The translations under genes and the position numbers were made by a program. The notes below the pieces were generated by a model, which did no database searches, was not told where the DNA came from, and worked only from the letters and a program-made list of their open reading frames with translations. A stretch of 64,000 nt of DNA from Alphaproteobacteria bacterium (GTDB lineage: Bacteria > Pseudomonadota > Alphaproteobacteria > MPNO01): the NCBI GenBank assembly GCA_965248835.1, contig CBDFLJ010000001.1, forward strand, positions 1,792,001 to 1,856,000, in the 5' to 3' direction. How positions within the stretch are numbered: position 1 is the first letter of the stretch; each line of letters begins with the position of its first letter. This document shows, in pieces, positions 23,995-51,851 of this stretch.

Positions 23995-27016
<3,022 letters not shown>

Positions 27017-28234
27017 TCATGAAGACACCGCGAGCGGTGCCAGCGCGCCGTCGCGAATGCTGAAATGCTGGGCCCGGACACCCAGGCCGTCGAACGGGCC
27101 GGGCTCGGTGCCGGTCATCCAGGCCTGGCTGCCGAGCGCCAAGATCTCCTCGAACAGCGCGCCGCGCCGGTCGGCATCGAGATGGGCCCCGACCTCGTCC
27201 AGCAGCAACAACGGCGCCGCGCCGCGTTCGGCCGCGCTGAGCCGCGCATGGCCCAGGATGATGCGGATCAGCAGCGCCTTCTGCTCGCCGGTTGAGCACC
27301 CGGCCGCAGGGCAGTCCTTGGCGAGATGGACGCAGAGGAGATCGCTGCGGTGCGGGCCGAAACGCGCGCGTCCGGCCTCGATATCGGCCGGGCGCAGGCT
27401 CGCCAACCGCGCGCGCACCGCATCCTCGACCGCCAACGCAGGCGCCTCGTCGAGCAGCGCCTCGACGGCGCCTTCGACCGCCACCGAGGCCGCGGGGAAC
27501 GGTCCGGTCGCCGCGCCGCAGACCTCGTCCAGCCGCCTCGCCAGGCTGCGCCTCGCCGCAGCAACCGCGACGCCGGCCTCCGCCATGGTGCCTTCCAGAG
27601 CCTCGAGCCAGGCGCCGTCGGCACGCGTGCCGTCGTCGCGCAACAACCGCGAGCGCTCGCGCATGGCATGTTCGTAGCGGTTGAGCCGCGTCGAATGCTC
27701 GCGGTCGGAGCCATAGACCAGCCGGTCCAGGAACCGCCGCCGGTCCGCCGCCGGTCCGTCGAACAAGCGGTCCATCTCCGGCGTGATCCAGCTCAGCGAG
27801 ACCCACCGGGTGAGCTCGCTCTGCGAGGCCGCATCGGCGCCGTCGATGCGCACGATCCGCCGCGCGCCCGCGCCCGCGCGCGCAGCCGGCGCGATCCCGG
27901 TGCCGATCTCGACCGCACCGTCGGCTGTCTCCAGCCGGGCGGCGACGGCCCAGCCTCCGCCTGCTGCCGTTCCATCGGCGGTCCTGCGGCTCACCTCGCC
28001 CAGCACGGCACCGCGCAAGCCACGGCCGGGGGCCAGAAATGACAGCGCTTCCAAGAGGTTGGTCTTTCCTGCTCCGTTGGGCCCGGTCAGCACGACCGGG
28101 CGTTGGTCGACGCTCAGCCGCGCTCTGGCATAGTTCCGGAAATCGGTCGCGGTCAGCCTGCTGACGGCCAGTCCGGGCCCGGGTGCTGCCGCCCGGCCAT
28201 GCGGCATGTCGGCGTGATGGGCTGCCGGGCTCAA
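27017..28234 (-). CDS. recF: DNA replication/repair protein RecF
   Basis: FRNY, GPNGAGKTNLLEA, RRRFLD, GPHRSDL, STGEQK, LLLDE. ATGA overlap with dnaN. Confidence 0.96.
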   Translation of the reverse strand: MSPAAHHADMPHGRAAAPGPGLAVSRLTATDFRNYARARLSVDQRPVVLTGPNGAGKTNLLEALSFLAPGRGLRGAVLGEVSRRTADGTAAGGGWAVAARLETADGAVEIGTGIAPAARAGAGARRIVRIDGADAASQSELTRWVSLSWITPEMDRLFDGPAADRRRFLDRLVYGSDREHSTRLNRYEHAMRERSRLLRDDGTRADGAWLEALEGTMAEAGVAVAAARRSLARRLDEVCGAATGPFPAASVAVEGAVEALLDEAPALAVEDAVRARLASLRPADIEAGRARFGPHRSDLLCVHLAKDCPAAGCSTGEQKALLIRIILGHARLSAAERGAAPLLLLDEVGAHLDADRRGALFEEILALGSQAWMTGTEPGPFDGLGVRAQHFSIRDGALAPLAVSS

Positions 28235-29349
28235 ACGCGCATCGGCATCAGGACGTAGAGCGCACCGGGATCGGACACGTCCCGGACCAGCGCCGAGGAC
28301 GCGCTGTCGGAGAACATGAACTGCGCCCCGTCGCTTTCGATCAGGCCGGCGATGTCCAGCAGGTAGCGCGAGTTGAAGCCGATCTCGAGCGGGCCGTCGG
28401 CGTAATCCACCTCGAGCCGCTCTTCGGCGTTTCCCGAATCCGGGCTCGAGGCGGACAGCACCAGCACGCCCTGATCCAGCCGCAACTTGACCGCGCGCGA
28501 CTTCTCGGTGGCGATGGTCGAGACCAGATCGACCGCCTTGGCGAAGTTCTTGGGATCGACCCGCAGCGCCTTGTCGTTGGCAAACGGGATGACCTTGTCG
28601 TAGTCGGGAAAGGTGCCGTCGATCAGCTTCGAGACGAGCACCGTGTTGCCGACGGCAATCCGCACCTTGGTGTCCGACAGCGCCATGGTCACGTCCTGTG
28701 CGCCGTCATCGAGCAGCTTGCGCACCTCGCCGACCGTCTTGCGCGGCACGATCACGCCGGGCATGCCCACCGCGCCGTCGGGCAGCGGCATCTCGACCCG
28801 GGCAAGGCGATGGCCGTCGGTGGCGACGATCCGCAGCACCTGGCCGGTATCGGTGTCGGCGGCGTGGACATAGATCCCGTTGAGATAGTAGCGGGTTTCC
28901 TCGACCGACATCGCGAACCGGGTGCGGTCGATGATGCCGCCGAGCGCCTCGGCGCTCAGCCTGAAGCTGTAGGGCAGTTCGCCCTCGGTCATGATCGGGA
29001 AGTCTTCGCTCGGCAGCGTCGTCAGCGCCAGGCGCGAGTGCCCGCAGCGCACCACGAGTTGGCTCTGCTGGCCGCCGCTGGCGATCTCGATCTCGGACCC
29101 CTCGGGCAGCTTGCGGACGATGTCGTAGAGCGTATGGGCGGGCACGGTAGTCGCGCCGGGCTGGACGAGGTTGCAGTCCACGCGCTCGACGATGGCCAGA
29201 TCCATATCGGTGGCCGTCATCGACAACGCGCCATCCGCGGCGTTGAGCAGGACGTTGCACAGAATCGGTATGGTGGTCCGCCGCTCGACCACGCCTTGGA
29301 CGTGCTGCAGCGACCTCAGCAACGCCCCGCGTTCGATCGTGAGCTTCAT
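28231..29349 (-). CDS. dnaN: DNA polymerase III beta clamp
   Basis: MKLTIER, TIPIL, ATDMD, ETRYYLNG, ATDGHRL, GTFPDY, LMPMRV. Confidence 0.98.
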   Translation of the reverse strand: MKLTIERGALLRSLQHVQGVVERRTTIPILCNVLLNAADGALSMTATDMDLAIVERVDCNLVQPGATTVPAHTLYDIVRKLPEGSEIEIASGGQQSQLVVRCGHSRLALTTLPSEDFPIMTEGELPYSFRLSAEALGGIIDRTRFAMSVEETRYYLNGIYVHAADTDTGQVLRIVATDGHRLARVEMPLPDGAVGMPGVIVPRKTVGEVRKLLDDGAQDVTMALSDTKVRIAVGNTVLVSKLIDGTFPDYDKVIPFANDKALRVDPKNFAKAVDLVSTIATEKSRAVKLRLDQGVLVLSASSPDSGNAEERLEVDYADGPLEIGFNSRYLLDIAGLIESDGAQFMFSDSASSALVRDVSDPGALYVLMPMRV

Positions 29350-29385
29350 GGTGCTGTGGCTTCCCGTTTGGACAAGAGCATCGCC

Positions 29386-29435
29386 GAATCGGAGTGTGCA
29401 GTATAGCACAAGCGATTGCCGCAACGGTAGGAATC
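29386..29435 (-). promoter_or_regulatory. Candidate dnaN promoter: extended -10 flanked by two GANTC (CcrM) sites
   Basis: Minus strand TGCTATACT (29408-29400); GAATC at 29386 and 29431. Confidence 0.45.
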
Positions 29436-29479
29436 GTCGTTCTCGGCCGCTGCAGGTGCGGCCGGGACGGGCGTCGGGC

Positions 29480-30937
29480 TCAGCTCATCAGCATCCGCCG
29501 CAGGAGCTCGACATCCTCGTCGAAGCCGGGGTCTCCGCTGCGCAATTCCTCGATCTTGCGCACGGCATGCATTACCGTCGTGTGGTCGCGCCCGCCGAAT
29601 TTGCGTCCGATCTCGGGCAGGGATCGCGAGGTGAGTTGCTTGGCCAGATACATCGCCACCTGGCGGGGCCTTGCGACCGCGCGCGCGCGCCGCGCCGAGT
29701 GCATGTCGGCCATGCGGATGTTGAAGTGCTCGGCGACCTGCTTCTGGATCTCCTCGATCGTCACCCGCCGGTCATGGGCGCGCAGCAGGTCGTGAAGCAC
29801 ATCCTGGCAGGTCTCCAGCGAGATCTCCCGCCCGATCAGGGTCGCGTGGGCGGCGACACGGTTGAGCGCGCCCTCGAGCTCGCGCACCGAGGCGGTGATC
29901 TTGTGGGCCAGGAACTCCATCACCTTGACCGGGATCTCGACGCCGAGGTGGTTGGCCTTGGACTGCAGGACGCCGACCCTGAGGTCATAGGTCGTGGCAT
30001 GGAGGTCGACCACCAAGCCCCAGCCGAGCCGCGAACGCAGGCGCTCCTCCATCCCCTGGAGGTCCGACGGCGATTTGTCGGCGGACACCACGACCTGGCG
30101 TTTGTTGTCGACCAACTCGTTGAAGGTATGGAAGAATTCTTCCTGGATGGAGTCCTTGCCGTTGATGAACTGCACGTCGTCGATCATCAGGATATCGACC
30201 GACCGGAAGCGCTCCTTGAAGGCCATCGTGTCCTTGGCCCGGATGGCTCGGACGAAGTGGTTCATGAACTTCTCAGCCGACAGATAGACCACCAGGCGGT
30301 TGGGATGGCGGTGCCGGATATGCCAGCCGATCGCGTGCATCAGGTGGGTCTTGCCGAGCCCGACCCCGCCATAGAGGAAAAGAGGGTTGTAGGCCGAGGT
30401 CGGCGATTCGGCGACGCGCTGGGCGGCGGCGTAGGCGAGCTCGTTCGGCTTGCCGACGATGAAGTTGTCGAACACGAAACGCGGGTCCAGCGGCGCGCTG
30501 AACTCGACCGCCGGCGACGGAGCCGCTGCGGTCGCGGCGGCGGTTGCGCCCGACCCGTCGGCGCGGGCCGGACCCGGTCGCCGGGCGGCGGCGCGCTCGC
30601 CGGCCTTCTCACCCGGGTCCTTGCGGTCCTTCGTGTCCGCCGGCAGCCGACGCCGTTCGCGCCGGCTGGGCTCGGCCTGGATCTGGACGTCCAACGTCTT
30701 CAACTCCGGGCTTTCCGCGCACCACAGCGCCAGGATCCGATCGGCGTAGTGGCTGTTCACCCAGTCGCGCATGAACCGCGTCGGCGTGGCGATTCGGACC
30801 GCGCCGCCCTCGACGGCGACCAGCGTCAGGGGCTTCAGCCAGCTCCGGTAGGCGGACTCGCCGACCTCGGCGCGAAGCACTCCCCGGACCCTGGCCCACT
30901 GCGCGGAGACGCGCGGCTCGATCGTCGGCCCCGCCAT
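29480..30937 (-). CDS. dnaA: Chromosomal replication initiator DnaA
   Basis: YNPLFLYGGVGLGKTHL, IDDVQF, QEEFFHTFN, VRELEGAL, GGRDHTTVMHA. Confidence 0.98.
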   Translation of the reverse strand: MAGPTIEPRVSAQWARVRGVLRAEVGESAYRSWLKPLTLVAVEGGAVRIATPTRFMRDWVNSHYADRILALWCAESPELKTLDVQIQAEPSRRERRRLPADTKDRKDPGEKAGERAAARRPGPARADGSGATAAATAAAPSPAVEFSAPLDPRFVFDNFIVGKPNELAYAAAQRVAESPTSAYNPLFLYGGVGLGKTHLMHAIGWHIRHRHPNRLVVYLSAEKFMNHFVRAIRAKDTMAFKERFRSVDILMIDDVQFINGKDSIQEEFFHTFNELVDNKRQVVVSADKSPSDLQGMEERLRSRLGWGLVVDLHATTYDLRVGVLQSKANHLGVEIPVKVMEFLAHKITASVRELEGALNRVAAHATLIGREISLETCQDVLHDLLRAHDRRVTIEEIQKQVAEHFNIRMADMHSARRARAVARPRQVAMYLAKQLTSRSLPEIGRKFGGRDHTTVMHAVRKIEELRSGDPGFDEDVELLRRMLMS

Positions 30938-31466
30938 CGGCTAGCACCGGGTTGCCGCGGGCGGCCCGGATAGGTCTGTCGGTTCGAAGGCTCGATTGGC
31001 TGCAGGGCTTGTTCGCCGGCATTCGGTACGAGACGATTTGCGCGGTTCTAAGACCGGCCCGCCCCTGATGGGACCAATCATGCACTCATCCCGCATCGAC
31101 GCCCCCTTCTGCCCAAATCTCGACTTGGACTCAAAACGGCGAAGCCCCGAATTCTTGCATTTCCTTGACAAAATCGCCAGGCTGGCAATTTTTTAAATCT
31201 TATGAGGTGTGCGATGCAAGCATAGGGCAAATATTAGACCGTTTTTTTCCTTAGAGGAAGCGCCCTGGACGCCATCCTGTACCAATCACTGTAACGGCGA
31301 GCGATCAGGCTGGCAATGGCCTGATCACCGCGCCACCCAACTTTTTGGGGGTTTTTGCATGCTCGGCGGTGGACAAACGCGCAATGAACGCCGACGGCGA
31401 ACGCTAAACTTCGGCAAATAAACGGAGAATTGTTGCGCCGCCGCGTCGGCGGCTGCCGGAAAAAAT

Positions 31467-42740: not shown

Positions 42741-44045
42741 TCATGGGCGATAGTGGCGCGCCAAACCCTGCCAGCAGTCCGGGTAGTCGTTCTGGCGCGC
42801 TCCGGTCTCCAGCGCGAAGCGGCTCGGCCGGCAGACATAGCGGGTCTCGAACATGAAGGCCAAGGTGTCGGCCAGGAACCGCGGCGCGAGATCGGCGGCC
42901 ACCGCGCTGGCGTGGGACTGGGTATCCGGCCCGTGCGGGGTCAGCGCGTTGTGGAGGCTCGCCCCGCCCGGCACGAACCCCTCGGCTTTGGCGTCGTACT
43001 GGCCCAGCACCAGGCCCATGAACTCGCTCATCACGTTGCGGTGGAACCAGGGCGGGCGGAAGGTGTCCTCGGCCACCACCCAGCGCGGCGGGAAGATTAC
43101 GAAATCCACGTTCGCGGTCCCGGCCAGGTCCGAGGGTGAGGTGAGCACGGTGTAGATCGACGGGTCGGGATGGTCGAAGCTGATCGAGCCGATGACGTTG
43201 AACCGCGCGAGGTCGTACCTGTAGGGCGCGAGGTTGCCGTGCCAGGCGACCACGTCGGTCGGCGCGTGGCCGATCGGGGCGGCCCACAGCTTGCCCTGGT
43301 ACTTGGTGACCAGCTCGAAGTCGCCTTCGCGGTCCTCGAAGCGGGCCTCGGGCACCTCGAAATCCCGCGGGTTGGCGAGCCCGTTGGCGCCGATCGGGCC
43401 GCGCTCGGGCGGCCGCAGGGCCTGGCCGTAGTTCTCGCACACATAGCCGCGCGCGGTGCCGTCGGGCAGCGCGATGCGCAGGCGGATGCCGCGCGGGATG
43501 ACCGCGATCTCGCCGGGCGAAACCACCATCGCGCCGAGCTCGGTGACCACGCCGAGCCGGCCCGATTCCGGGACGATCAGCATCTCGCCGTCGGCGTTGG
43601 CGAAGAACCGTTCCTGCATCGAAACGTTGGCGCGGTAGATGTGCGCCGCCATCCCGGCCTGCATTGCCGCATCGCCCGCCGCGGCCATCGTGACCAACCC
43701 GTCGATGAAATCGGTGTCCTCCTCCGGCATCGCAAGCGGGTCCCAGCGCAACTGTTCGGGCGGGCAATCGGCTTCGGTGAGCGGCGCGGTGCGCAGCAAC
43801 CCGTTGTCGATGCGCGAGAACCGGCCCTGTCTGACCGAAGGGCGGATGCGGTAGACCCAGGTCCGCAGGGTCTCCGCGCGCGGGGCGGTGAACGCGGTGC
43901 CGCTCAACTGTTCGGCATAGAGCCCAAAGGCGACCTTCTGGGGCGAGTTGCGGCCGCGCGGAAGCGCTCCCGGCACCGCCTCGGTCGCGAACTCGTTGCC
44001 GAAGCCGGTCATGTAGCGAAGCTCGGTCGCCGCCAGCGTATCCAT
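42741..44045 (-). CDS. hmgA: Homogentisate 1,2-dioxygenase
   Basis: [57 protein letters not shown]. Confidence 0.97.
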
Positions 44046-44192: not shown

Positions 44193-45215
44193 ATGGCCAT
44201 GTATCTGCGCAATCAATGGTATGTCGCCGCGCGCGCCAGCGAGGTCGGCAGGACGCCGATGCAGCGCTGGTTGCTCGACGAGCCCTGTGTGCTCTACCGC
44301 ACCGAGGCGGGCGCGCCGGTCGTGCTCGACGACCGCTGCCCGCACCGGCGCTATGCGCTATCCAAGGGGCGGCTGGTGGGCGATGTGCTGCAGTGCGGCT
44401 ATCACGGGCTTTCCTTCGCGCCCGACGGCGCGTGCGTGGGCATTCCCGGCCAGGAAAGGATCCCGCCGCAGATCCGCGCGCGGACGCTGCCGGCGGTCGA
44501 GCGCCACCGCTGGATCTGGGTCTGGCCGGGAGATCCGGACCAGGCCGACCCGCGCGAGATCCCCGATTTCCACTGGATGGACAAGCCGGGCTGGACCTGT
44601 TCGGACGATTACCGCCAGATCGGCTGCCATTACCGTCTTCTGGTCGACAACCTGCTCGATCTCACCCACGAAACCTTCGTGCACACCGCGACCATCGGTC
44701 ATGCCGAACTGGCCAAAGCGCCGATCGAGGCCAGGCGCGATGACGACCTGATCCGCATCGACCGGATCGTCCAGGACTGCACCCCACCGCCCTTGTTCAC
44801 CAAGGCCGTGGGGTTCGATGGCAACATCGACCGCTACCAGCTCATCCGCCACCAGGCGCCGTCTTTCATCTGGATCGATGCGCGGGCGATTGCGACCGGC
44901 TCGAACGATCTCGATAGCGGCCTGCGCTGGGAGGTGCTGAACGCGATCACCCCGGCGACTCCGGATGCGACCCACTACTTCTGGGGCCTGTCGCGCCACT
45001 TCCACCAGGACGACGAGGACCTGACCCGCGTGCTCCATGAAGCGGTCGAGCGGACCTTCGACGAGGACACCGAGGTGCTGGAGACCCAGCACCGGATGAT
45101 GAAATCCGACCCGCCGGACCATCCGATGGTCCATGTCGATGCCGACCGCGGCGTCGTGCTCGCCCGCCGTCTGCTGGACGAGCGGCTCGCGGCAGAGCAG
45201 GCTGGAGGGGCGTGA
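44193..45215 (+). CDS. Rieske non-heme iron oxygenase alpha subunit (VanA-like)
   Basis: Rieske site CPHR...CGYHG; mononuclear Fe site DNLLDLTHETFVH; FDED. Confidence 0.92.
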   Translation: MAMYLRNQWYVAARASEVGRTPMQRWLLDEPCVLYRTEAGAPVVLDDRCPHRRYALSKGRLVGDVLQCGYHGLSFAPDGACVGIPGQERIPPQIRARTLPAVERHRWIWVWPGDPDQADPREIPDFHWMDKPGWTCSDDYRQIGCHYRLLVDNLLDLTHETFVHTATIGHAELAKAPIEARRDDDLIRIDRIVQDCTPPPLFTKAVGFDGNIDRYQLIRHQAPSFIWIDARAIATGSNDLDSGLRWEVLNAITPATPDATHYFWGLSRHFHQDDEDLTRVLHEAVERTFDEDTEVLETQHRMMKSDPPDHPMVHVDADRGVVLARRLLDERLAAEQAGGA

Positions 45216-45688
45216 GCCGGTTCGTCCTGCGGATCAACGGCGCCCGTCGCGAGGTCGATGCCGACCCGGCGAGCCCGCTGATCTACGTGCTGCGCAACCA
45301 GCTCGGTCTCATGGGCGCCAAGCTCGGCTGCGGGCTCGAGCAATGCGGCGCCTGTGTGGTGCTGGTCGACGGCGCGCCGGTGCTGAGCTGCGTGCGCGCG
45401 GTCTCCGAGTTCGTCGGATCGGAGATCCGCACCGTCGAAGGCCTCGCCGCCGATGCCCGCGGACGCGCCGTGCAACGGGCCTTCATCGAAGAGAACGCCG
45501 CGCAATGCGGCTATTGCACGCCGGGACTCGTGATCGCGGTCACGGCGCTCCTGAGCCGCAACCCGGCGCCCGGGAACGCCGAGATCCGCGTGGCGTTGAA
45601 CGATCATCTCTGCCGTTGCGGCTCCCATCCGCGGGTGCTTGCGGCGATCGACCGGCTGGTCCGGGAGGGGGCGGGCGATAGCGTCTAA
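45212..45688 (+). CDS. Molybdenum hydroxylase small 2x[2Fe-2S] subunit (CoxS/IorA/NicA-like)
   Basis: GCGLEQCGAC, QCGYCTPG, LCRCG; GTGA overlap with the Rieske gene. Confidence 0.93.
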   Translation: MSRFVLRINGARREVDADPASPLIYVLRNQLGLMGAKLGCGLEQCGACVVLVDGAPVLSCVRAVSEFVGSEIRTVEGLAADARGRAVQRAFIEENAAQCGYCTPGLVIAVTALLSRNPAPGNAEIRVALNDHLCRCGSHPRVLAAIDRLVREGAGDSV

Positions 45689-47831
45689 CCCAAGCCTCGC
45701 CCGGCATCCCGACCTCGACGACTGGCTGTCGATCGGCGCCGACGGGCGCGTGAGGCTGCGCAGCGGCAAGGTCGATATCGGCCAGCGGATTTCCACCGCG
45801 CTCGCCTTGCTGGTCGCGGACGAGCTCGACGTTGCGCCTGCGCGCATCGATGTCGCGCGCGCCGAGACCGGCCTCTCGCCCGATGAAGGCATCACCTCGG
45901 GCAGCCAGTCGATGGTGGACTCCGGCACCGCGGTGCGTCTGGCCGCGGCGACCGCACGCCGTCACCTGCTCGCCTGTGCCGCGTTTGTGCTCGACGTGGA
46001 CCCCGCGACGCTGGAGGTCGCCGACGGCCAAGTCCGCTCGCGCGCAACCAACCGCACTACGACCTACTGGGAGCTGGCCGGCGGCAAGCCGTTCGGCATC
46101 CCGGTCGATGTCGGAGCCGCGGTGAAGGCGCCTGCCGACCTGCGTCATGTCGGGCGGCCCGTCATCGCCCGGTCCATGGAAGAGATCGTCACCGGCAAGC
46201 CCTATTTCGTTCAGGACATGACGCTGCCCGGCATGATCCATGCGCGCGTCGTCCGCCCGCCGCACTACCATGCGCGGCTGCGCGGACTCGACGAGGCGGT
46301 CCTCGGCCGGCTCGTCGAGGACGGTATCCGCATCGTGCGTGACGGCAGCTTCCTGGCGGTCGCGGCAAGCGAGGAATTCGCCGCCGTCCGGGCCGTCGAG
46401 CGCATCGCCCCGGCCGTCGACTGGGACCTCGGTGACGGGCTCAATGCCCAGGACGTCTTCGAGCGTCTGACCCGCAATGCGCGCGTCAGCCTGCCGGTCC
46501 GCGGCGGCGTGCCGCAGGACGCGCTCGTGCCCGACCCCGAGCCGACCCCGACCGAGGCGGTTGCCACGCTCGCTGCGCGGTTCGAGCGCCCCTATCAGAT
46601 GCACGGATCGATCGGCCCGTCGGCGGCGCTTGCGCTGTTCACGGACGACCGCCTGTCGGTCTGGACCCACAGCCAGGGGATCTATGTGCTGCGGGCGAGC
46701 ATGGCCGAAGCGCTGGGGATGGAACCCGAGGCGTTGCGCATCACTCATGTGCCCGGCGCCGGCTGTTACGGGCACAACGGCGCAGACGACGCGGCAGTCG
46801 ATGCCGCGCTGATCGCCCGCGCGCTGCCCGGGACACCGGTGCTGCTCAAGTGGTCGCGCGCCGACGAGCATGGCTGGGAGCCCTACGGCTCGTGCATGGT
46901 CATGGCGCTGAGCGCGAGCGTTGACGCTGAAGGGCGGGTCATCGCGTGGTCCCACGAAACCTTCAGCGACACCTACAGCATGCGGCCCCGGCCCGGTCCC
47001 GACGGGATCGGTCCCGCACGGCTGCTGGCAATGCGGCATGTTGCCGAAGCCTTCCCGGCACCGCTCCCGCAGCCGGCGATGGCCCGCCACATGGGTATCC
47101 ACCGCAACCTTGAGCCGCTCTACACGTTTCCCCGGCCACGGCTGGTCAAGCACCTGGTCCGCGGCCTGCCGCTGCGCACCTCGGCGCTGCGCGGGCTCGG
47201 CGCCTATGCCAACGTCTTCGCGATCGAGTCCTTCATGGACGAGCTCGCGCTGGCCGCCGGGAAGGACCGGGTGAGCTTCCGGATGGATCATCTCGACAAC
47301 GAGCGGGCACGGGCGGTGCTCGCGGCGGTGGGCGAGCGGCTGCGTCCGATGACGGCAGGCATCGGCGCCGGCCCCGGCAGCGGTCTTGCCTTCGCCCAAT
47401 ACAAGAACATCGCAGCCTATGCCGCGGTCGGCATCGAGCTCGAGGTCACCGAGGCGGCGGAGATCAGGTTGCAGCGCGCCGTGATCGCCGCCGACGCCGG
47501 CCATGTCGTCGACCCGAACGGCCTGACCGCGCAACTCGAAGGCGGGCTGATCCAGGCCGCGAGCTGGACGCTGCACGAGGCGGTGAGGTTCGACCGGACC
47601 GGGATCACCAGCCGGGATTGGGAGACCTATCCGATCCTGCGCTTCGACAACGTACCGGAGATCGAGACGGTGCTGGTCGACCGGCCCGGGGCGCCTTTCC
47701 TCGGCGCCGGCGAGGCGACCGCCGGTCCCACGGCGGCGGCGATCGCCAACGCCGTCAGGGACGCAACGGGTCTGTCGCTGCGCCGCTTGCCGTTTACCCC
47801 CGATGCGCTCCGCCGCGCCGCGATGGCTTGA
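45678..47831 (+). CDS. Molybdopterin-binding large subunit (IorB/NicB-like xanthine oxidase family)
   Basis: GKVDIGQ, GITSGSQS, HGSIGPS, GAGCYGHNGADD, LRGLGA..N.FAIESFMDELA, QLEGG, GAGE. Start ambiguous (ATA 45678 or TTG 45639). Confidence 0.88.
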   Translation: MASNPSLARHPDLDDWLSIGADGRVRLRSGKVDIGQRISTALALLVADELDVAPARIDVARAETGLSPDEGITSGSQSMVDSGTAVRLAAATARRHLLACAAFVLDVDPATLEVADGQVRSRATNRTTTYWELAGGKPFGIPVDVGAAVKAPADLRHVGRPVIARSMEEIVTGKPYFVQDMTLPGMIHARVVRPPHYHARLRGLDEAVLGRLVEDGIRIVRDGSFLAVAASEEFAAVRAVERIAPAVDWDLGDGLNAQDVFERLTRNARVSLPVRGGVPQDALVPDPEPTPTEAVATLAARFERPYQMHGSIGPSAALALFTDDRLSVWTHSQGIYVLRASMAEALGMEPEALRITHVPGAGCYGHNGADDAAVDAALIARALPGTPVLLKWSRADEHGWEPYGSCMVMALSASVDAEGRVIAWSHETFSDTYSMRPRPGPDGIGPARLLAMRHVAEAFPAPLPQPAMARHMGIHRNLEPLYTFPRPRLVKHLVRGLPLRTSALRGLGAYANVFAIESFMDELALAAGKDRVSFRMDHLDNERARAVLAAVGERLRPMTAGIGAGPGSGLAFAQYKNIAAYAAVGIELEVTEAAEIRLQRAVIAADAGHVVDPNGLTAQLEGGLIQAASWTLHEAVRFDRTGITSRDWETYPILRFDNVPEIETVLVDRPGAPFLGAGEATAGPTAAAIANAVRDATGLSLRRLPFTPDALRRAAMA

Positions 47832-47889
47832 GGGCTCGCCCGGCCGCGTTGGACACAGGTCCCGGGCCGCCATAGACTCGACCGGGCAG

Positions 47890-47929
47890 GAACGAGAGCC
47901 CGGCCATGAACGAGAGCCCGGCCATGAAC
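47890..47929 (+). repeat. Exact 18-bp tandem duplication spanning the RBS and start codon
   Basis: GAACGAGAGCCCGGCCAT x2 plus GAAC, giving in-frame ATGs at 47906 and 47924. Confidence 0.9.
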
Positions 47930-49372
47930 ATCCTCATCCGCAACGCTTGCGTCGTGACGATGGATCCGGGCCGCGCGGTGTTCGAGGGCGGTTTCGTCGC
48001 GATCGCCGAGGACGGCGCGATCGCAGCGGTGGGCCCCGGCGATGCCGTGCCGGACGGCGGCTACGACCGCATCGTTGATGCGACGGGCATGATCGCGACG
48101 CCCGGCCTGATCAACCTTCACCAGCACCACTGGTACAACCTGTTCAAGGGGCTGGCCGGCGGCATGCTGCTTGAGGACTGGGTCGAAAGGCTGCTTCTGC
48201 CTTGCGCCGGCCGGCTGGGTGCGGCGGATCTGCGCGCCTCGGCCGCTCTGGCCGCACTCGAGATGATCCGGACCGGGACGACCACCTGCCTCAACCACTC
48301 GGTGACGACCACCATGGAAGAGGAGGCGGCGGCGACGATCGAACCCATGGCGGAAATCGGCTTCCGCCATGTGTTCGCCAAGGATTTCCGCTGCCGGACC
48401 CCGGCCAATCCGGACCATCCGCACGATGCCGCGGCCGCCGCGGCCTATATCGGCGAACTGGTCGGGCGATGGGACGGCGCCCGCGGCGGGCTGGTGCGGT
48501 TGGCCCTTGCGATCGAATCGAACGCCCACTGGATCGCCGCCGGTATGAGCTCGGAGGCGCTGATTGCCGCCGGCCATGGCTTGGCGTGCGAGCGCGATCT
48601 GCGCATCACCAACCATGCGGCCGGCGGAACCTTGTCGGTCGAGAAGGGCTACCTCAAATACGTGCGTGCGACCGGCCGGACCGATATCGGCCATCTCATG
48701 CAGCTCGGCGTCCTCGATCCGAGGTGGCTGCTGATCCATGTCATCAACCTGACCGATTCCGACATCGAGATGATGCGGCGGTCCGGTTGCCAGGCGGTCT
48801 ACACGCCGACCAGCGAGTCGATGCGCGGCGGCGGTATCGGGCCGTGGCGCGCGCTCGACCGCGCCGGCATCACCGTAGCGCTCGGCACCGACGGGCCGAT
48901 GGTCGACTACTCGGTCGACATGGTCGAGCAGATGAAGGCGTGTCTGACCTTCCAGAACGTCAAACATCTCGACGCGGCGGCCTTCTCGCCCGAGCGGGTG
49001 CTCGAGATGGCGACCATCGATGCCGCCCGTGCGCTCGGGATGGACGGCGAGATCGGCTCGCTCGAGCCCGGCAAGCGCGCCGACCTCGTCCTGTTCGACA
49101 TGCGCGCGCCGCACCTGCACGTCATGCACAACCCGATCGCCAACCTGGTCTGCTGCGCACGCGGCGGGGATGCCCACACGGTCGTGATCGACGGGCGCAT
49201 CGTCCTGGACGGGGGCACGTTCCCCGATGTCGCCGATGTCGCGCAGATCGTTGCCGAAGCGACCGAACGGGGCCGGGCAATCGCACACGGGGCCGGCGTG
49301 CTCGACGCCGCGCGTCCGCGCTGGCCACCGCCACGGGCCGCAGCGAGCCGATGCGATCCGAGCTTGCCCTGA
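47924..49372 (+). CDS. Amidohydrolase, TRZ/ATZ - MTA/SAH deaminase-like family
   Basis: PGLINLHQH, GTTT, LIH, ALGTDG, IGSLEPGKRAD. Confidence 0.85.
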   Translation: MNILIRNACVVTMDPGRAVFEGGFVAIAEDGAIAAVGPGDAVPDGGYDRIVDATGMIATPGLINLHQHHWYNLFKGLAGGMLLEDWVERLLLPCAGRLGAADLRASAALAALEMIRTGTTTCLNHSVTTTMEEEAAATIEPMAEIGFRHVFAKDFRCRTPANPDHPHDAAAAAAYIGELVGRWDGARGGLVRLALAIESNAHWIAAGMSSEALIAAGHGLACERDLRITNHAAGGTLSVEKGYLKYVRATGRTDIGHLMQLGVLDPRWLLIHVINLTDSDIEMMRRSGCQAVYTPTSESMRGGGIGPWRALDRAGITVALGTDGPMVDYSVDMVEQMKACLTFQNVKHLDAAAFSPERVLEMATIDAARALGMDGEIGSLEPGKRADLVLFDMRAPHLHVMHNPIANLVCCARGGDAHTVVIDGRIVLDGGTFPDVADVAQIVAEATERGRAIAHGAGVLDAARPRWPPPRAAASRCDPSLP

Positions 49373-50323
49373 TCAGGACCCGGCGAGGTGCGGGAACAGG
49401 GCCAGCGCGTTGCCGCGCTCGATGCCGGCGAGATCGGCGGCGGGCAGGCCGAGGTCGATGAGGCCCTTGACGGTCGCGGTCATCGTGGCCTCGGGCGCGA
49501 ACGGGTAGTCGCTGCCAAACAGGACGTGGCCGGAGCCGACCAACTCGAGCAGGCTGCCGAAGATGAACCGGTTGGCCGACAGCGCGGTGTCGAAATAGAG
49601 CCGGGCGAGCTCGGGGATCACGCCGTTGGGGACCGCGTCCTTGAAGCCCGGCCGGGCGGCCAGCCGGGCGATCCGCTCGGCCAGGAACGGGACGGTGCCG
49701 CCGGCGTGCGAGAAGATGAACCGGATGTCCGGGCAGCGCGCGAACGTGCCGCCATAGAGCAGGCTCACGATCGCCCGCGTGGTATCGAACGGGAATTCGA
49801 GCGTTGCCGCTGGAATTTCGGGCAGGCACTGGCTGCATGGCGCCTGGGTGGGGTGGAAGTAGACGACGGCACGCCGCCGGTTGAGCTCGTCGAACACCGG
49901 CGCAAAGGCGGCATCGCCGGGGTACTGGTCGCCGTAGCTGGTCAACAGGCCGATGCCGTCGGCGTCCAGCGTGTCCAATGCATGGGCGATCTCGGCCAGG
50001 CTCGCCTCGACATCGGGCAGCGGCAGGCCGGCGAAGACGCCGAACCGGCCCGGATGGCGCTTGCGGATCTCGGCCGCGTATTCGTTGGAATGCCGGCACA
50101 GCGCGATCGTCTCTTCGGTGCTGCCGAACCAGAACCCGGGTGCCGAGATCGAGGTGATCGCGGTCGCGATGCCGTTGCGGTCCATCGCCTCGATCGACAT
50201 TTCGGGCGTCCATTCCGGCGTCCTGCCCGACAGGATCAGCGGCCCGATCCGCTCGTCGCCGACGATATCGACGTAATCCGGCGGCAGGATGTGGTGGTGG
50301 ACGTCGATCCGGTGGGCCTGCAT
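49373..50323 (-). CDS. Amidohydrolase_2 family protein (6-methylsalicylate decarboxylase/ACMSD-like)
   Basis: IDVHHH, YFHP, EFPFDTTRA, SHAGG, FDTA, FGSDYPF. ATG 50323. Confidence 0.88.
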   Translation of the reverse strand: MQAHRIDVHHHILPPDYVDIVGDERIGPLILSGRTPEWTPEMSIEAMDRNGIATAITSISAPGFWFGSTEETIALCRHSNEYAAEIRKRHPGRFGVFAGLPLPDVEASLAEIAHALDTLDADGIGLLTSYGDQYPGDAAFAPVFDELNRRRAVVYFHPTQAPCSQCLPEIPAATLEFPFDTTRAIVSLLYGGTFARCPDIRFIFSHAGGTVPFLAERIARLAARPGFKDAVPNGVIPELARLYFDTALSANRFIFGSLLELVGSGHVLFGSDYPFAPEATMTATVKGLIDLGLPAADLAGIERGNALALFPHLAGS

Positions 50324-50349
50324 CGGCAATTCCTTTCCTGTGTCGGGTT

Positions 50350-51255
50350 TCAGCCCGGCCTTCGCGCCGCCTTGGCTTCGATCCGGGCGATATAGCTGGT
50401 GCTGGCGATGATGATCAGGGCGCCCAGAATGGTCCAGACATCGGGGGTCTCGCCGAAGACCAGAAGGCCGAGGACGGCGGCATAGACCAGACGGCTGTAT
50501 TCCATCGGCCCGATCACGCTCGCCTCGGCGACGGCGAAGCCGTGCACGAAGGCGATCATGCCGAGTGTCGTCAGCAGCCCGATGCCTGCGGCCATCGCCC
50601 ACTCCAGCCCCACCGGTGAGCGCCAGACCAGGATGGCCGGGACCACAAAAACCAGCACGCCGCCGATGTGATAGTAGAACAGGATCCGAGTTGCCGGCTC
50701 GGTGCTCGACAGCATCTTTATCATCACGTTGGCGACCGCAAACGACATCGCCGCGCCGATCGCGACCACGGCGATCGGATCCATCCCTTCCGGGCCCGGG
50801 CGCAGCATCACGATCACACCAACGAACCCGAAGCCTGTCGCCCACCAGCGCTGGCGGGTCACCAGCTCGCGCAGCAGCACGATGGCGACGATGGTGGTGA
50901 ACACGATCCGCGAGAAGGACAGCGCGGTCGCGCTCGCCAAGGGCAGGTTGATCACCGCTATGAGCGTGCCGACCTGGGCGATCGAGGCGATGACCAACCT
51001 CGTTGCGTGCATGCCAAGCCGCCGGGTCTTGAGCCCGGCAAGGCCGGCGCGCCAGAACAGCGGCGCCAGGATGACCACGCCCACCAGATAACGGAACAGC
51101 GCGAGCTCCAGGGCATCGAGCGTTCGGCCCAGCGTCTTGATGAACACGTCGTTGAGGGCGAACGCGATACTGCCCAGCGTGATCCAGATGATGCCGCGCA
51201 GGTTGGGCGACAGCCCGCGCCAGGGCGCGAGCAGCGGCTCCAGGCGATGGATCAA
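50350..51255 (-). CDS. DMT/EamA family transporter
   Basis: About 10 TM segments, LLRE.V..RW, GFVGVI.MLRPG, PMEY, FGETPD. TTG start overlaps the upstream TGA. Confidence 0.88.
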   Translation of the reverse strand: MIHRLEPLLAPWRGLSPNLRGIIWITLGSIAFALNDVFIKTLGRTLDALELALFRYLVGVVILAPLFWRAGLAGLKTRRLGMHATRLVIASIAQVGTLIAVINLPLASATALSFSRIVFTTIVAIVLLRELVTRQRWWATGFGFVGVIVMLRPGPEGMDPIAVVAIGAAMSFAVANVMIKMLSSTEPATRILFYYHIGGVLVFVVPAILVWRSPVGLEWAMAAGIGLLTTLGMIAFVHGFAVAEASVIGPMEYSRLVYAAVLGLLVFGETPDVWTILGALIIIASTSYIARIEAKAARRPG

Positions 51256-51851
51256 TCGCTCAATGACGCCGGCACCCGCCCGGCAAGCTCGGCGTTGAAG
51301 GCGGCGTAAGCGCGAAACCCGGGCGCGGCGCGGCACATGGCCTCGGTCTCGCTGATCAGCGCCTCGTCGGACTTGGTGAAGTCGATCGGTTTCAGGAACG
51401 GCTGGGTGATGTACCACGGCGTGTCGGCGAAGAACTCCAGCGCGTTGCCCTCCGGATCGGTGGTGTACATCGCCCAGCACACGCCGTGGGTGACGGTGTC
51501 GACCGCGCGCCCGGACTCCGCGCCCAGCCGGTCGTGCATCCGGCGCAGTTCGGCGAGCGAGGCCAGTCGGAACGACAGGTGGTGCAGCACCGGGCCGACC
51601 CCCGGCATGTACCGGTTGGCGGGCAGGTCGCCGTCCGGCTTGCCGTCGACCAGAAACACCTGGTGATGCTCTTCGGGGTCCAGCGTCATGAAGGCCATCG
51701 TCGCACCCGAGCCGGTCATCCCCTTGTCGGTCAGCGCGAAGCCCAGCACGCGGGTGTAGAAATCCTGCATCATCTCTAGGTCGGAGACGACCAGTCCCAG
51801 ATGGCTGAACTTCATCCGCGGCGGCCCGTCGGTGGTCCTGGTTGTGCTCAT
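51252..51851 (-). CDS. VOC family protein (single-domain glyoxalase/dioxygenase-like)
   Basis: FSHLGL, FYTRVLGF, EHHQ, LHHLSF, HG, Y..DPEGNALE. Confidence 0.85.
   Translation of the reverse strand: MSTTRTTDGPPRMKFSHLGLVVSDLEMMQDFYTRVLGFALTDKGMTGSGATMAFMTLDPEEHHQVFLVDGKPDGDLPANRYMPGVGPVLHHLSFRLASLAELRRMHDRLGAESGRAVDTVTHGVCWAMYTTDPEGNALEFFADTPWYITQPFLKPIDFTKSDEALISETEAMCRAAPGFRAYAAFNAELAGRVPASLSD

Follow-up and report, generated by a model that had tools for sequence, protein, structure and literature searches.

A VanA-type Rieske oxygenase gene overlapping a two-gene, FAD-less molybdenum hydroxylase unit in an alphaproteobacterium: a probable pathway-level link with redox partners in trans

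The 64,000-nucleotide stretch of alphaproteobacterial DNA analyzed here (the window; C1:1792001-1856000 of the genome labeled G000, a 4.89-Mb assembly of two contigs with roughly 67% G+C) carries a row of four co-oriented genes that encode a Rieske oxygenase, the two subunits of an IorAB-type molybdenum (Mo) hydroxylase without a flavin adenine dinucleotide (FAD) subunit, and an amidohydrolase. A preliminary description of this DNA had proposed that the oxygenase and the Mo enzyme form a self-contained, electron-coupled module. Comparison with related genomes points instead to a link between the oxygenase step and the Mo-enzyme step at the level of a shared pathway, with the redox partners supplied in trans, a reading to which we assign a probability of roughly 0.6. 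The same IorAB unit adjoins VanA-like oxygenase genes in three genera, in support of the functional connection that had been proposed between the two enzymes, whereas each of the two also occurs alone in close relatives. Gene identities were determined by Pfam searches of the window open reading frames (ORFs), with NCBIfam used for equivalogs and PDB matches for the nearest solved structures. The four genes are as follows.

44193..45215, + strand: VanA/DdmC-type (alpha-only) Rieske non-heme iron monooxygenase, here called type A (Pfam Rieske, E = 7.7e-19; VanA_C, E = 2.9e-42)
45212..45688, + strand: 2x[2Fe-2S] small subunit of the IorA/CoxS type, with a GTG start (Pfam Fer2 and Fer2_2)
45678..47831, + strand (ORF from 45639): IorB-type molybdopterin subunit (Pfam MoCoBD_2 ahead of MoCoBD_1, the permuted arrangement of IorB)
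47906..49372, + strand: TRZ/ATZ-family amidohydrolase, deaminase or chlorohydrolase type (AH1; Pfam Amidohydro_1, E = 1.6e-38)

The gene calls of the preliminary description, namely, a VanA-like Rieske oxygenase, a 2x[2Fe-2S] subunit, an IorB-like Mo subunit, and an amidohydrolase, were all borne out by Pfam. The 4-nt overlap noted between the first two genes, in which the GTG start of the small subunit overlaps the stop codon of the Rieske gene (GTGA at 45212-45215), is read directly in the sequence, and the junction is reproduced without indels in Logan contigs assembled from short reads of four runs of one sample, with one contig spanning 44000-48148. Domain and motif searches likewise agree with the reported lack of a reductase, of a CoxM-type FAD subunit, and of a CxxCH motif in the Mo subunit. 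No reductase, ferredoxin, or flavodoxin was seen in Pfam scans of 49 window ORFs; whole-genome searches with PF00175, PF00941, and PF14759 gave no match within the window, and the sole window match of PF00111 is the small subunit itself.

The juxtaposition of a VanA-like gene with IorAB recurs across the order. Orthologs of IorAB (59 to 84% identity) are present in 32 of the 41 genomes of the order, and among 30 order-level IorAB loci, a Rieske gene lies directly upstream in 13 and is convergent in 1, with none in the examined flank of the other 16. Both genomes of the window's genus, G000 and G402 (locus L001), have the type A gene upstream of IorAB. In genus g313, a different VanA-like gene (type B) is located directly upstream of IorAB in all 11 loci; the type B genes are 84 to 100% identical to each other and 35 to 39% identical to type A. 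In one of these genomes, G407, the Rieske and small-subunit genes are separated by 2 nt, the trio stands alone between divergent and convergent genes, and no reductase was found within 8 kb on either side. A third VanA-like paralog (42 to 44% identity) was found in one g321 genome, convergent to the Mo gene and 5 nt from its end. Thus, the reductase-less trio, for which a survey of gene neighborhoods had been suggested, is found elsewhere, in G402 and in 11 of 11 g313 loci. If VanA-like genes make up about 0.2 to 0.6% of genes, and each of some 12 independent gene orders offers two positions beside IorAB, about 0.15 to 0.4 adjacencies are expected versus 3 seen (Poisson P of ∼0.001 to 0.01, a rough post hoc estimate), so the adjacency of IorAB and VanA-like genes across the order does not appear to be random.

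Conversely, each partner can be found without the other. In G403 and G408, which represent two sister genera, the type A ortholog (65% and 63% identity, respectively) and the IorAB ortholog (70% and 68%) are located on different contigs, and neither appears in the flanks of the other. The window's own genome encodes a type B ortholog (65% identity; C1:139075-140073) that has TctA and Amidohydro_3 neighbors, as in G407, but no IorAB. A self-contained module would be inherited as a whole, with neither partner occurring without the other; these unlinked orthologs, together with the 16 of 30 IorAB loci lacking a Rieske gene, leave the proposed electron-coupled module unsupported, and since each occurs alone in close relatives, neither the Rieske oxygenase nor IorAB appears to need its partner.

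A further contrast comes from the family f211, in which an Amidohydro_2 ortholog (75 to 80% identity) is located directly upstream of the small- and Mo-subunit genes in six of seven loci. The four extended loci of this family (L221 to L224, from G424, G433, G438, and G427, respectively) all show the order UbiD-family decarboxylase, Amidohydro_2, small subunit, Mo subunit, and in three of them (L221, L223, and L224) the Mo subunit is followed by a TauD/TfdA oxygenase. The f211 Amidohydro_2 gene is more conserved with respect to its window counterpart than is the Mo subunit (62 to 65%), and across families, Amidohydro_2 is the most conserved neighbor of IorAB. The oxygenase in the coupled position of f211 is 2-oxoglutarate dependent and requires no external electrons, which is easier to reconcile with a common pathway than with a common electron circuit. 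As IorAB adjoins three VanA-like paralogs in three genera and, in f211, an oxygenase of the TauD/TfdA type, the link is most likely at the pathway level.

The comparison centered on the Rieske gene covered 80 loci of homologs, with one genome per species. Only in L001 (G402; 87% identity) are the small- and Mo-subunit genes directly downstream of the Rieske homolog, although a xanthine oxidase-family gene is present within 8 kb in four other loci (L035, L046, L070, and L071). In G402, the Rieske and small-subunit genes are separated by a 199-bp spacer, and the ATG of the Mo gene overlaps the small subunit by 11 nt. The six closest homologs outside the genus (G403, 65%; G408, 63%; L002, 61%; then 51 to 49%) all differ in their neighbors, and none has a Mo enzyme or a reductase beside it. 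Of the 80 loci, 31 have a detectable reductase-like ORF close to the Rieske gene; L001 to L018, which include the 17 closest loci in public genomes (L002 to L018), have none. A metagenome scan with the Rieske protein yielded six loci, of which L137 (84% identity) ends inside the gene; the other five are at the paralog level (38 to 47%) and lack Mo genes. In G408, the Rieske ortholog is followed by a GFA-domain protein (L153:8033-8467; E = 5e-7) and then by a GST; the presence of a member of the glutathione-dependent formaldehyde-activating family in this position hints, albeit weakly, at formaldehyde as a product of the oxygenase.

At the level of the class, a homolog of the Mo subunit was detected in 74 of 401 genomes. 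The small and Mo subunits form a conserved unit in 19 of the 20 best class-level loci (±8 kb), the contig of the remaining one (L123) ending inside the Mo gene. Outside the order, none of the 20 best IorAB loci contains a VanA-like gene, a homolog of AH1 or of the window's Amidohydro_2 decarboxylase (AH2), or a BenC-type reductase within ±8 kb, and another 28 loci, inspected over ±1.5 kb, likewise lack a Rieske gene. Within the set of 20, a Tat-like signal was seen in 6 and an adjacent multiheme cytochrome c gene in 4, and no conserved acceptor gene was evident near IorAB. No FAD-subunit gene was found among the ORFs scanned around these loci or around those of the order. The lack of FAD, which the preliminary description had singled out, characterizes the IorAB family as a whole and does not reflect gene loss at the window locus.

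The lack of a linked reductase is no more distinctive. The genome yields 100 Rieske-domain matches, 73 Mo large-subunit (CoxL-like) genes, 24 small subunits, 23 FAD subunits, 22 TauD-like matches, and 37 UbiD-like matches, counts that are inflated by a few because ∼227 kb of the assembly, which is rated 9.5% contaminated, is duplicated, mostly as contig-end overlaps and repeats. The only reductases are three of the Fer2-FAD-NAD arrangement (FNR type, PF00175) and one Reductase_C ferredoxin reductase, all outside the window; one of them (C1:1724516-1725502) directly follows a VanA-like paralog (41% identity), 111 kb upstream of the Rieske gene. In 20 relatives, there are one to six such reductases each versus 5 to 27 VanA-like genes (E ≤ 1e-60). 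With so few reductases per VanA-like gene in both the genome and its relatives, oxygenase genes of this lineage typically have no reductase gene linked to them, and about 100 Rieske matches are set against four reductase systems in G000. About 50 of the Mo large subunits in G000 are orphans, and the catabolic redox families are extremely expanded for a 4.9-Mb genome. Sharing of electron-transfer components among Rieske oxygenases has been described in sphingomonads (PMC12319509).

The Rieske protein shows both domains of the VanA/DdmC type. Its Rieske cluster ligands (CxH...CxxH) are C49, H51, and H71, invariant in 34 homologs, and C68, retained in at least 90% of them. H159, H164, and D292 are invariant in the same set, and we take them to be the 2-His-1-carboxylate iron ligands, based on the DdmC numbering. 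The nearest solved structure is DdmC (PDB 3gb4 and others; E = 2.6e-52), and the protein scores below every NCBIfam equivalog cutoff. Electrons reach DdmC through a ferredoxin and a reductase, whereas the partner of VanA is VanB. In alignments of homologs, no lineage-specific insertion was seen in either the Rieske protein or the small subunit. Complex prediction from the alignments of these two proteins gave a score of 0.00 against a mark of 0.32, with the controls not folded, so that the result bears on binding neither way.

In the small subunit, the eight cysteines C40, C45, C48, C60, C99, C102, C134, and C136 are invariant among 21 sequences. The Mo subunit, the only IorB-type one among the 73 large subunits of the genome, contains a MoCoBD_2 fragment (residues 24-148) followed by MoCoBD_1 (305-445) and, near its C terminus, a GAGE motif, the Glu of which is presumably the catalytic one. 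Its closest solved chain is 8gy3_C, the large subunit of a membrane aldehyde dehydrogenase (E = 3.1e-38). Twin-arginine translocation (Tat) export to the periplasm, which would have excluded coupling to the oxygenase, was considered and rejected: no RR-plus-hydrophobic region was found, and the frame opens only ∼30 codons before the conserved N terminus, leaving no room for a Tat signal, so the Mo subunit is cytoplasmic. Nor does the enzyme resemble the periplasmic subgroup (NdhAB/AldFGH-like) in other respects, as it has neither a CxxCH motif nor a cytochrome c gene nearby. The exact start of the Mo gene is less regular. In an N-terminal alignment with G402, the codon that corresponds to the ATG start of the latter reads ATA (45678-45680) and is preceded by the Shine-Dalgarno-like sequence GGGAGG (45663-45668); an alternative start is TTG at 45639. 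No variant at the ATA codon is present in the contigs of the four runs, and the gene may start either at this near-cognate codon or at TTG 45639.

Taken together, these comparisons suggest a scenario in which the Rieske monooxygenase, the cytoplasmic two-subunit IorAB, and the TRZ/ATZ amidohydrolase would form one co-transcribed catabolic set, opposite which lie the genes for an ACMSD/LigW-type decarboxylase and an EamA transporter. The small- and Mo-subunit genes would represent an order-wide, vertically inherited two-gene unit that has been repeatedly placed beside oxygenase genes. The Mo enzyme might oxidize the same ring as the oxygenase, by analogy with the breakdown of picolinate, quinoline, and quinoxaline, in which a Mo enzyme acts before a Rieske oxygenase. 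Alternatively, we infer that it could oxidize an aldehyde by-product of oxidative demethylation, an option that would explain the indifference to which oxygenase paralog adjoins IorAB. The substrate would probably be a substituted aromatic or N-heteroaromatic acid or amine. The Rieske oxygenase would take its electrons from one of the few shared reductases encoded in trans, as must some 90 further Rieske oxygenases encoded in G000, and the FAD-less Mo enzyme would hand its electrons to a soluble acceptor, as would its orthologs without a Rieske neighbor. Under this ordinary explanation, the locus would simply add to the catabolic clusters of a lineage whose electron carriers are encoded at scattered sites.

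Several observations weigh against the pathway-level reading with partners in trans. The three independent juxtapositions of IorAB with different VanA-like genes exceed the number expected by chance, the tight junctions (4-nt overlap here and 2 nt in G407) would fit an electron-level link as well, and the G407 operon consists of exactly the Rieske, small-subunit, and Mo-subunit genes, with its 8-kb flanks devoid of a reductase. To our knowledge, the cytoplasmic subgroup of IorAB enzymes has no established or obvious physiological electron acceptor. The ratio of reductases to Rieske oxygenases in the lineage is extreme.

It is unlikely that the Rieske gene and IorAB are chance neighbors that adjoin without a shared function. 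In a genome this crowded with Rieske, Mo large-subunit, TauD-like, and UbiD-like paralogs, some adjacency is expected, and genome-wide, a Mo gene lies no more than 2.5 kb away from 12 of the 100 Rieske matches versus a random expectation of 7.4 ± 2.6, a weak, 1.6-fold enrichment. The differing neighbors of the closest Rieske homologs, the presence of AH1 here and its absence from G402, and the variation of the Rieske-small subunit spacing within the genus (4-nt overlap versus 199 bp) all fit chance as well. However, three independent juxtapositions with the same IorAB ortholog, improbable by the post hoc Poisson estimate, and a tight junction that is kept across 11 g313 species argue for a shared role. 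At the opposite extreme, the two enzymes could be wired directly, such that the Rieske cluster receives electrons straight from the surface [2Fe-2S] cluster of the FAD-less Mo enzyme; each Mo-dependent oxidation would then release the two electrons needed for one turnover of the oxygenase, and NAD(P)H would not be required. The cytoplasmic location of IorAB, its lack of an FAD subunit, a cytochrome c, and a conserved acceptor gene nearby, the translational coupling of the Rieske gene to the small subunit, the recurrence of the trio with another paralog in all 11 g313 loci and as a stand-alone operon in G407, and the small number of reductases per Rieske gene are consistent with such wiring. 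The Fe/S clusters of the xanthine oxidase family have midpoint potentials below those of oxygenase Rieske clusters, which also counts in its favor. There is, in addition, a precedent for transfer to the product of an adjacent gene in the periplasmic, FAD-less NdhAB, which is described as passing electrons to pseudoazurin (PMC7688666). Nevertheless, we regard direct wiring as improbable: both partners exist unlinked in sister genomes; more than half of the orthologous IorAB loci (16 of 30) have no Rieske gene in the examined flank; the spacer in the congeneric G402 is 199 bp long; the oxygenase coupled to the Mo subunit in f211 is of the TauD/TfdA type, which requires no electrons; neither the small subunit nor the Rieske protein has a lineage-specific insertion; and reductases are available in trans.

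Coupling could also be indirect, with the Mo enzyme reducing a ferredoxin pool that feeds Rieske oxygenases too, so that electrons are partially recycled without a specific complex. The scarcity of reductases next to numerous Rieske and Mo enzymes would favor such an arrangement, and candidate carriers do exist in the genome: one stand-alone plant-type ferredoxin frame (C1:2177085-2177330), small Rieske-type ferredoxin frames, and, directly upstream of a second FAD-less CoxS-CoxL pair (C1:1642708-1645837), a gene for a dedicated 116-aa Rieske ferredoxin. No carrier gene was found linked to the window locus or its orthologs, however, and oxygenases of the VanA/DdmC type usually have a reductase or ferredoxin partner specific to them, so that a shared pool, too, is rather doubtful. 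A more specific version of electron return, and a very remote one, is a self-priming demethylase, in which IorAB, acting as an aldehyde oxidoreductase, would oxidize the formaldehyde released by the VanA-type demethylase encoded immediately upstream and pass both electrons from its surface [2Fe-2S] cluster straight back to the Rieske cluster. Overall, the reaction would be R-OCH3 + O2 -> R-OH + HCOOH, without NAD(P)H or a reductase. Because the by-product does not depend on the aromatic substrate, this scheme would explain why one IorAB unit is found behind three VanA-like paralogs and, if true, also how ∼100 Rieske oxygenases manage with four reductases. More generally, if the Mo enzyme does feed the oxygenase, this would be a new, cofactor-free way to power Rieske chemistry, of biocatalytic interest, and the g313 three-gene operon would be the cleanest system in which to examine electron feed from Mo enzyme to Rieske oxygenase.

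The second FAD-less Mo enzyme is encoded at C1:1640834-1645837 (L156:2834-7837), ∼150 kb upstream of the window, in a tight row that comprises a 625-aa amidohydrolase, the 116-aa Rieske-type ferredoxin, CoxS (155 aa), and CoxL (766 aa), with no FAD subunit within 4 kb. The ferredoxin, which has no close homolog in 400 genomes of the class (best match, 39% identity), could be the acceptor of this enzyme. Elsewhere in the genome, a 468-aa Rieske oxygenase gene overlaps an 800-aa orphan CoxL-like gene by 4 nt (C1:1500078-1503883), and other same-strand Rieske/CoxL pairs are located at C2:1623667-1627173 and C2:2460539-2465170.

The four-gene row is flanked on one side by a divergent gene and on the other by two genes of the opposite strand.

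42741..44045, - strand: homogentisate 1,2-dioxygenase (HGD; Pfam HgmA_N, E = 9.3e-120, and HgmA_C), divergent from the Rieske gene
49373..50325, - strand: Amidohydro_2 decarboxylase of the ACMSD/IDCase/LigW type (AH2; Pfam Amidohydro_2), convergent to the operon
50350..51257, - strand: EamA-family transporter (Pfam EamA), upstream of the decarboxylase

HGD is single copy in the genome by tblastn and is syntenic in G402 and the metagenome contig L137. As a single-copy gene that is unlinked to the Rieske homologs outside the genus, it is probably incidental to the pathway and probably a housekeeping enzyme. The TRZ/ATZ amidohydrolase fits the Amidohydro_1 family level (AtzA, guanine deaminases, and 8-oxoguanine deaminases) and reaches no specific function: the top NCBIfam hits are to deaminases and chlorohydrolases of the TRZ/ATZ type, none of which reaches its equivalog cutoff, and among solved structures, atrazine chlorohydrolase comes closest (4v1x; E = 6.2e-50). 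The gene accounts for a 1.5-kb presence/absence difference within the genus, the convergent decarboxylase directly following the Mo gene in G402 (L001/L155). A NESPAM hexapeptide is duplicated within its first codons. The decarboxylase gene, with PDB matches to 2f6k, ACMSD, IDCase, and LigW, starts at ATG 50323 with a Shine-Dalgarno sequence. The EamA transporter is syntenic in G402 and 85% identical. The window also contains gyrB, dnaN, and dnaA (24524-30940), which places the locus ∼14 kb from the probable replication origin region. Near-identical stretches were noted at the contig ends (C1:1-21046 versus C1:2264326-2285374, C2:1-23721 versus C1:271259-294985, and C2:2597304-2606847 versus C1:1-9543); these long inverted or shared stretches look like assembly overlaps or fold-backs.

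Hydroxylation by a Mo enzyme followed by Rieske oxygenation is an established logic for opening N-heterocycles. The closest parallel in terms of enzyme kinds is picolinate degradation in Alcaligenes faecalis JQ135, where a Mo hydroxylase (PicA), a Rieske oxygenase (PicB), and a decarboxylase (PicC) act in sequence (bioRxiv 10.1101/530550). The pic cluster, the substrate of which is an N-heteroaromatic acid, thus combines the same three kinds of enzyme as the window locus, including an Amidohydro_2-type decarboxylase. PicA is, however, described as a three-subunit enzyme that includes FAD and PicB as an alpha/beta oxygenase of four components, among them a ferredoxin and a reductase of its own, whereas the window encodes a two-subunit IorAB and an alpha-only, VanA-type oxygenase with no linked redox partner; the likeness is one of enzyme kind. 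PicB was also considered as a possible Mo-coupled Rieske system and discarded, being an ordinary four-component oxygenase. Similarly, in lumichrome/riboflavin catabolism, hydroxylation by a xanthine oxidase-family enzyme (LumJ) is described as preceding a Rieske oxygenase (LumABCD) that acts on the same heterocycle in the quinoxaline steps, with all components encoded in one operon; unlike IorAB, LumJ carries Fe/S, FAD, and molybdenum cofactor (Moco) domains, and LumA and LumB are the dedicated ferredoxin and reductase (PMC12746152). In both cases, the sources describe an oxygenase that brings its own reductase (bioRxiv 10.1101/530550; PMC12746152).

With respect to the individual components, the window Rieske protein shares the Rieske plus VanA_C architecture and the conserved metal ligands of DdmC and VanA. 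The Mo enzyme resembles 8gy3 (chains C and B), a two-gene core of Moco and 2x[2Fe-2S] subunits without FAD; the 8gy3 complex includes a cytochrome c subunit, whereas none is encoded at the window locus. NdhAB of Agrobacterium tumefaciens S33 is likewise described as a two-subunit, FAD-less enzyme with Moco and 2x[2Fe-2S], which cannot use NAD(P)+ or O2 and donates electrons to a pseudoazurin encoded alongside (PMC7688666). It differs, by the same account, in that it is Tat exported and feeds the respiratory chain through this copper-protein acceptor, whereas the window enzyme has no Tat signal and its neighbor is an oxygenase gene. A literature search, with subscription journals outside its reach, found no described electron couple between a Rieske oxygenase and IorAB or another Mo enzyme. 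Set against these systems, what is new here is a minimal Rieske-[2Fe-2S]-Moco operon without a linked redox partner, present in two genera with nonorthologous oxygenases and assembled more than once.

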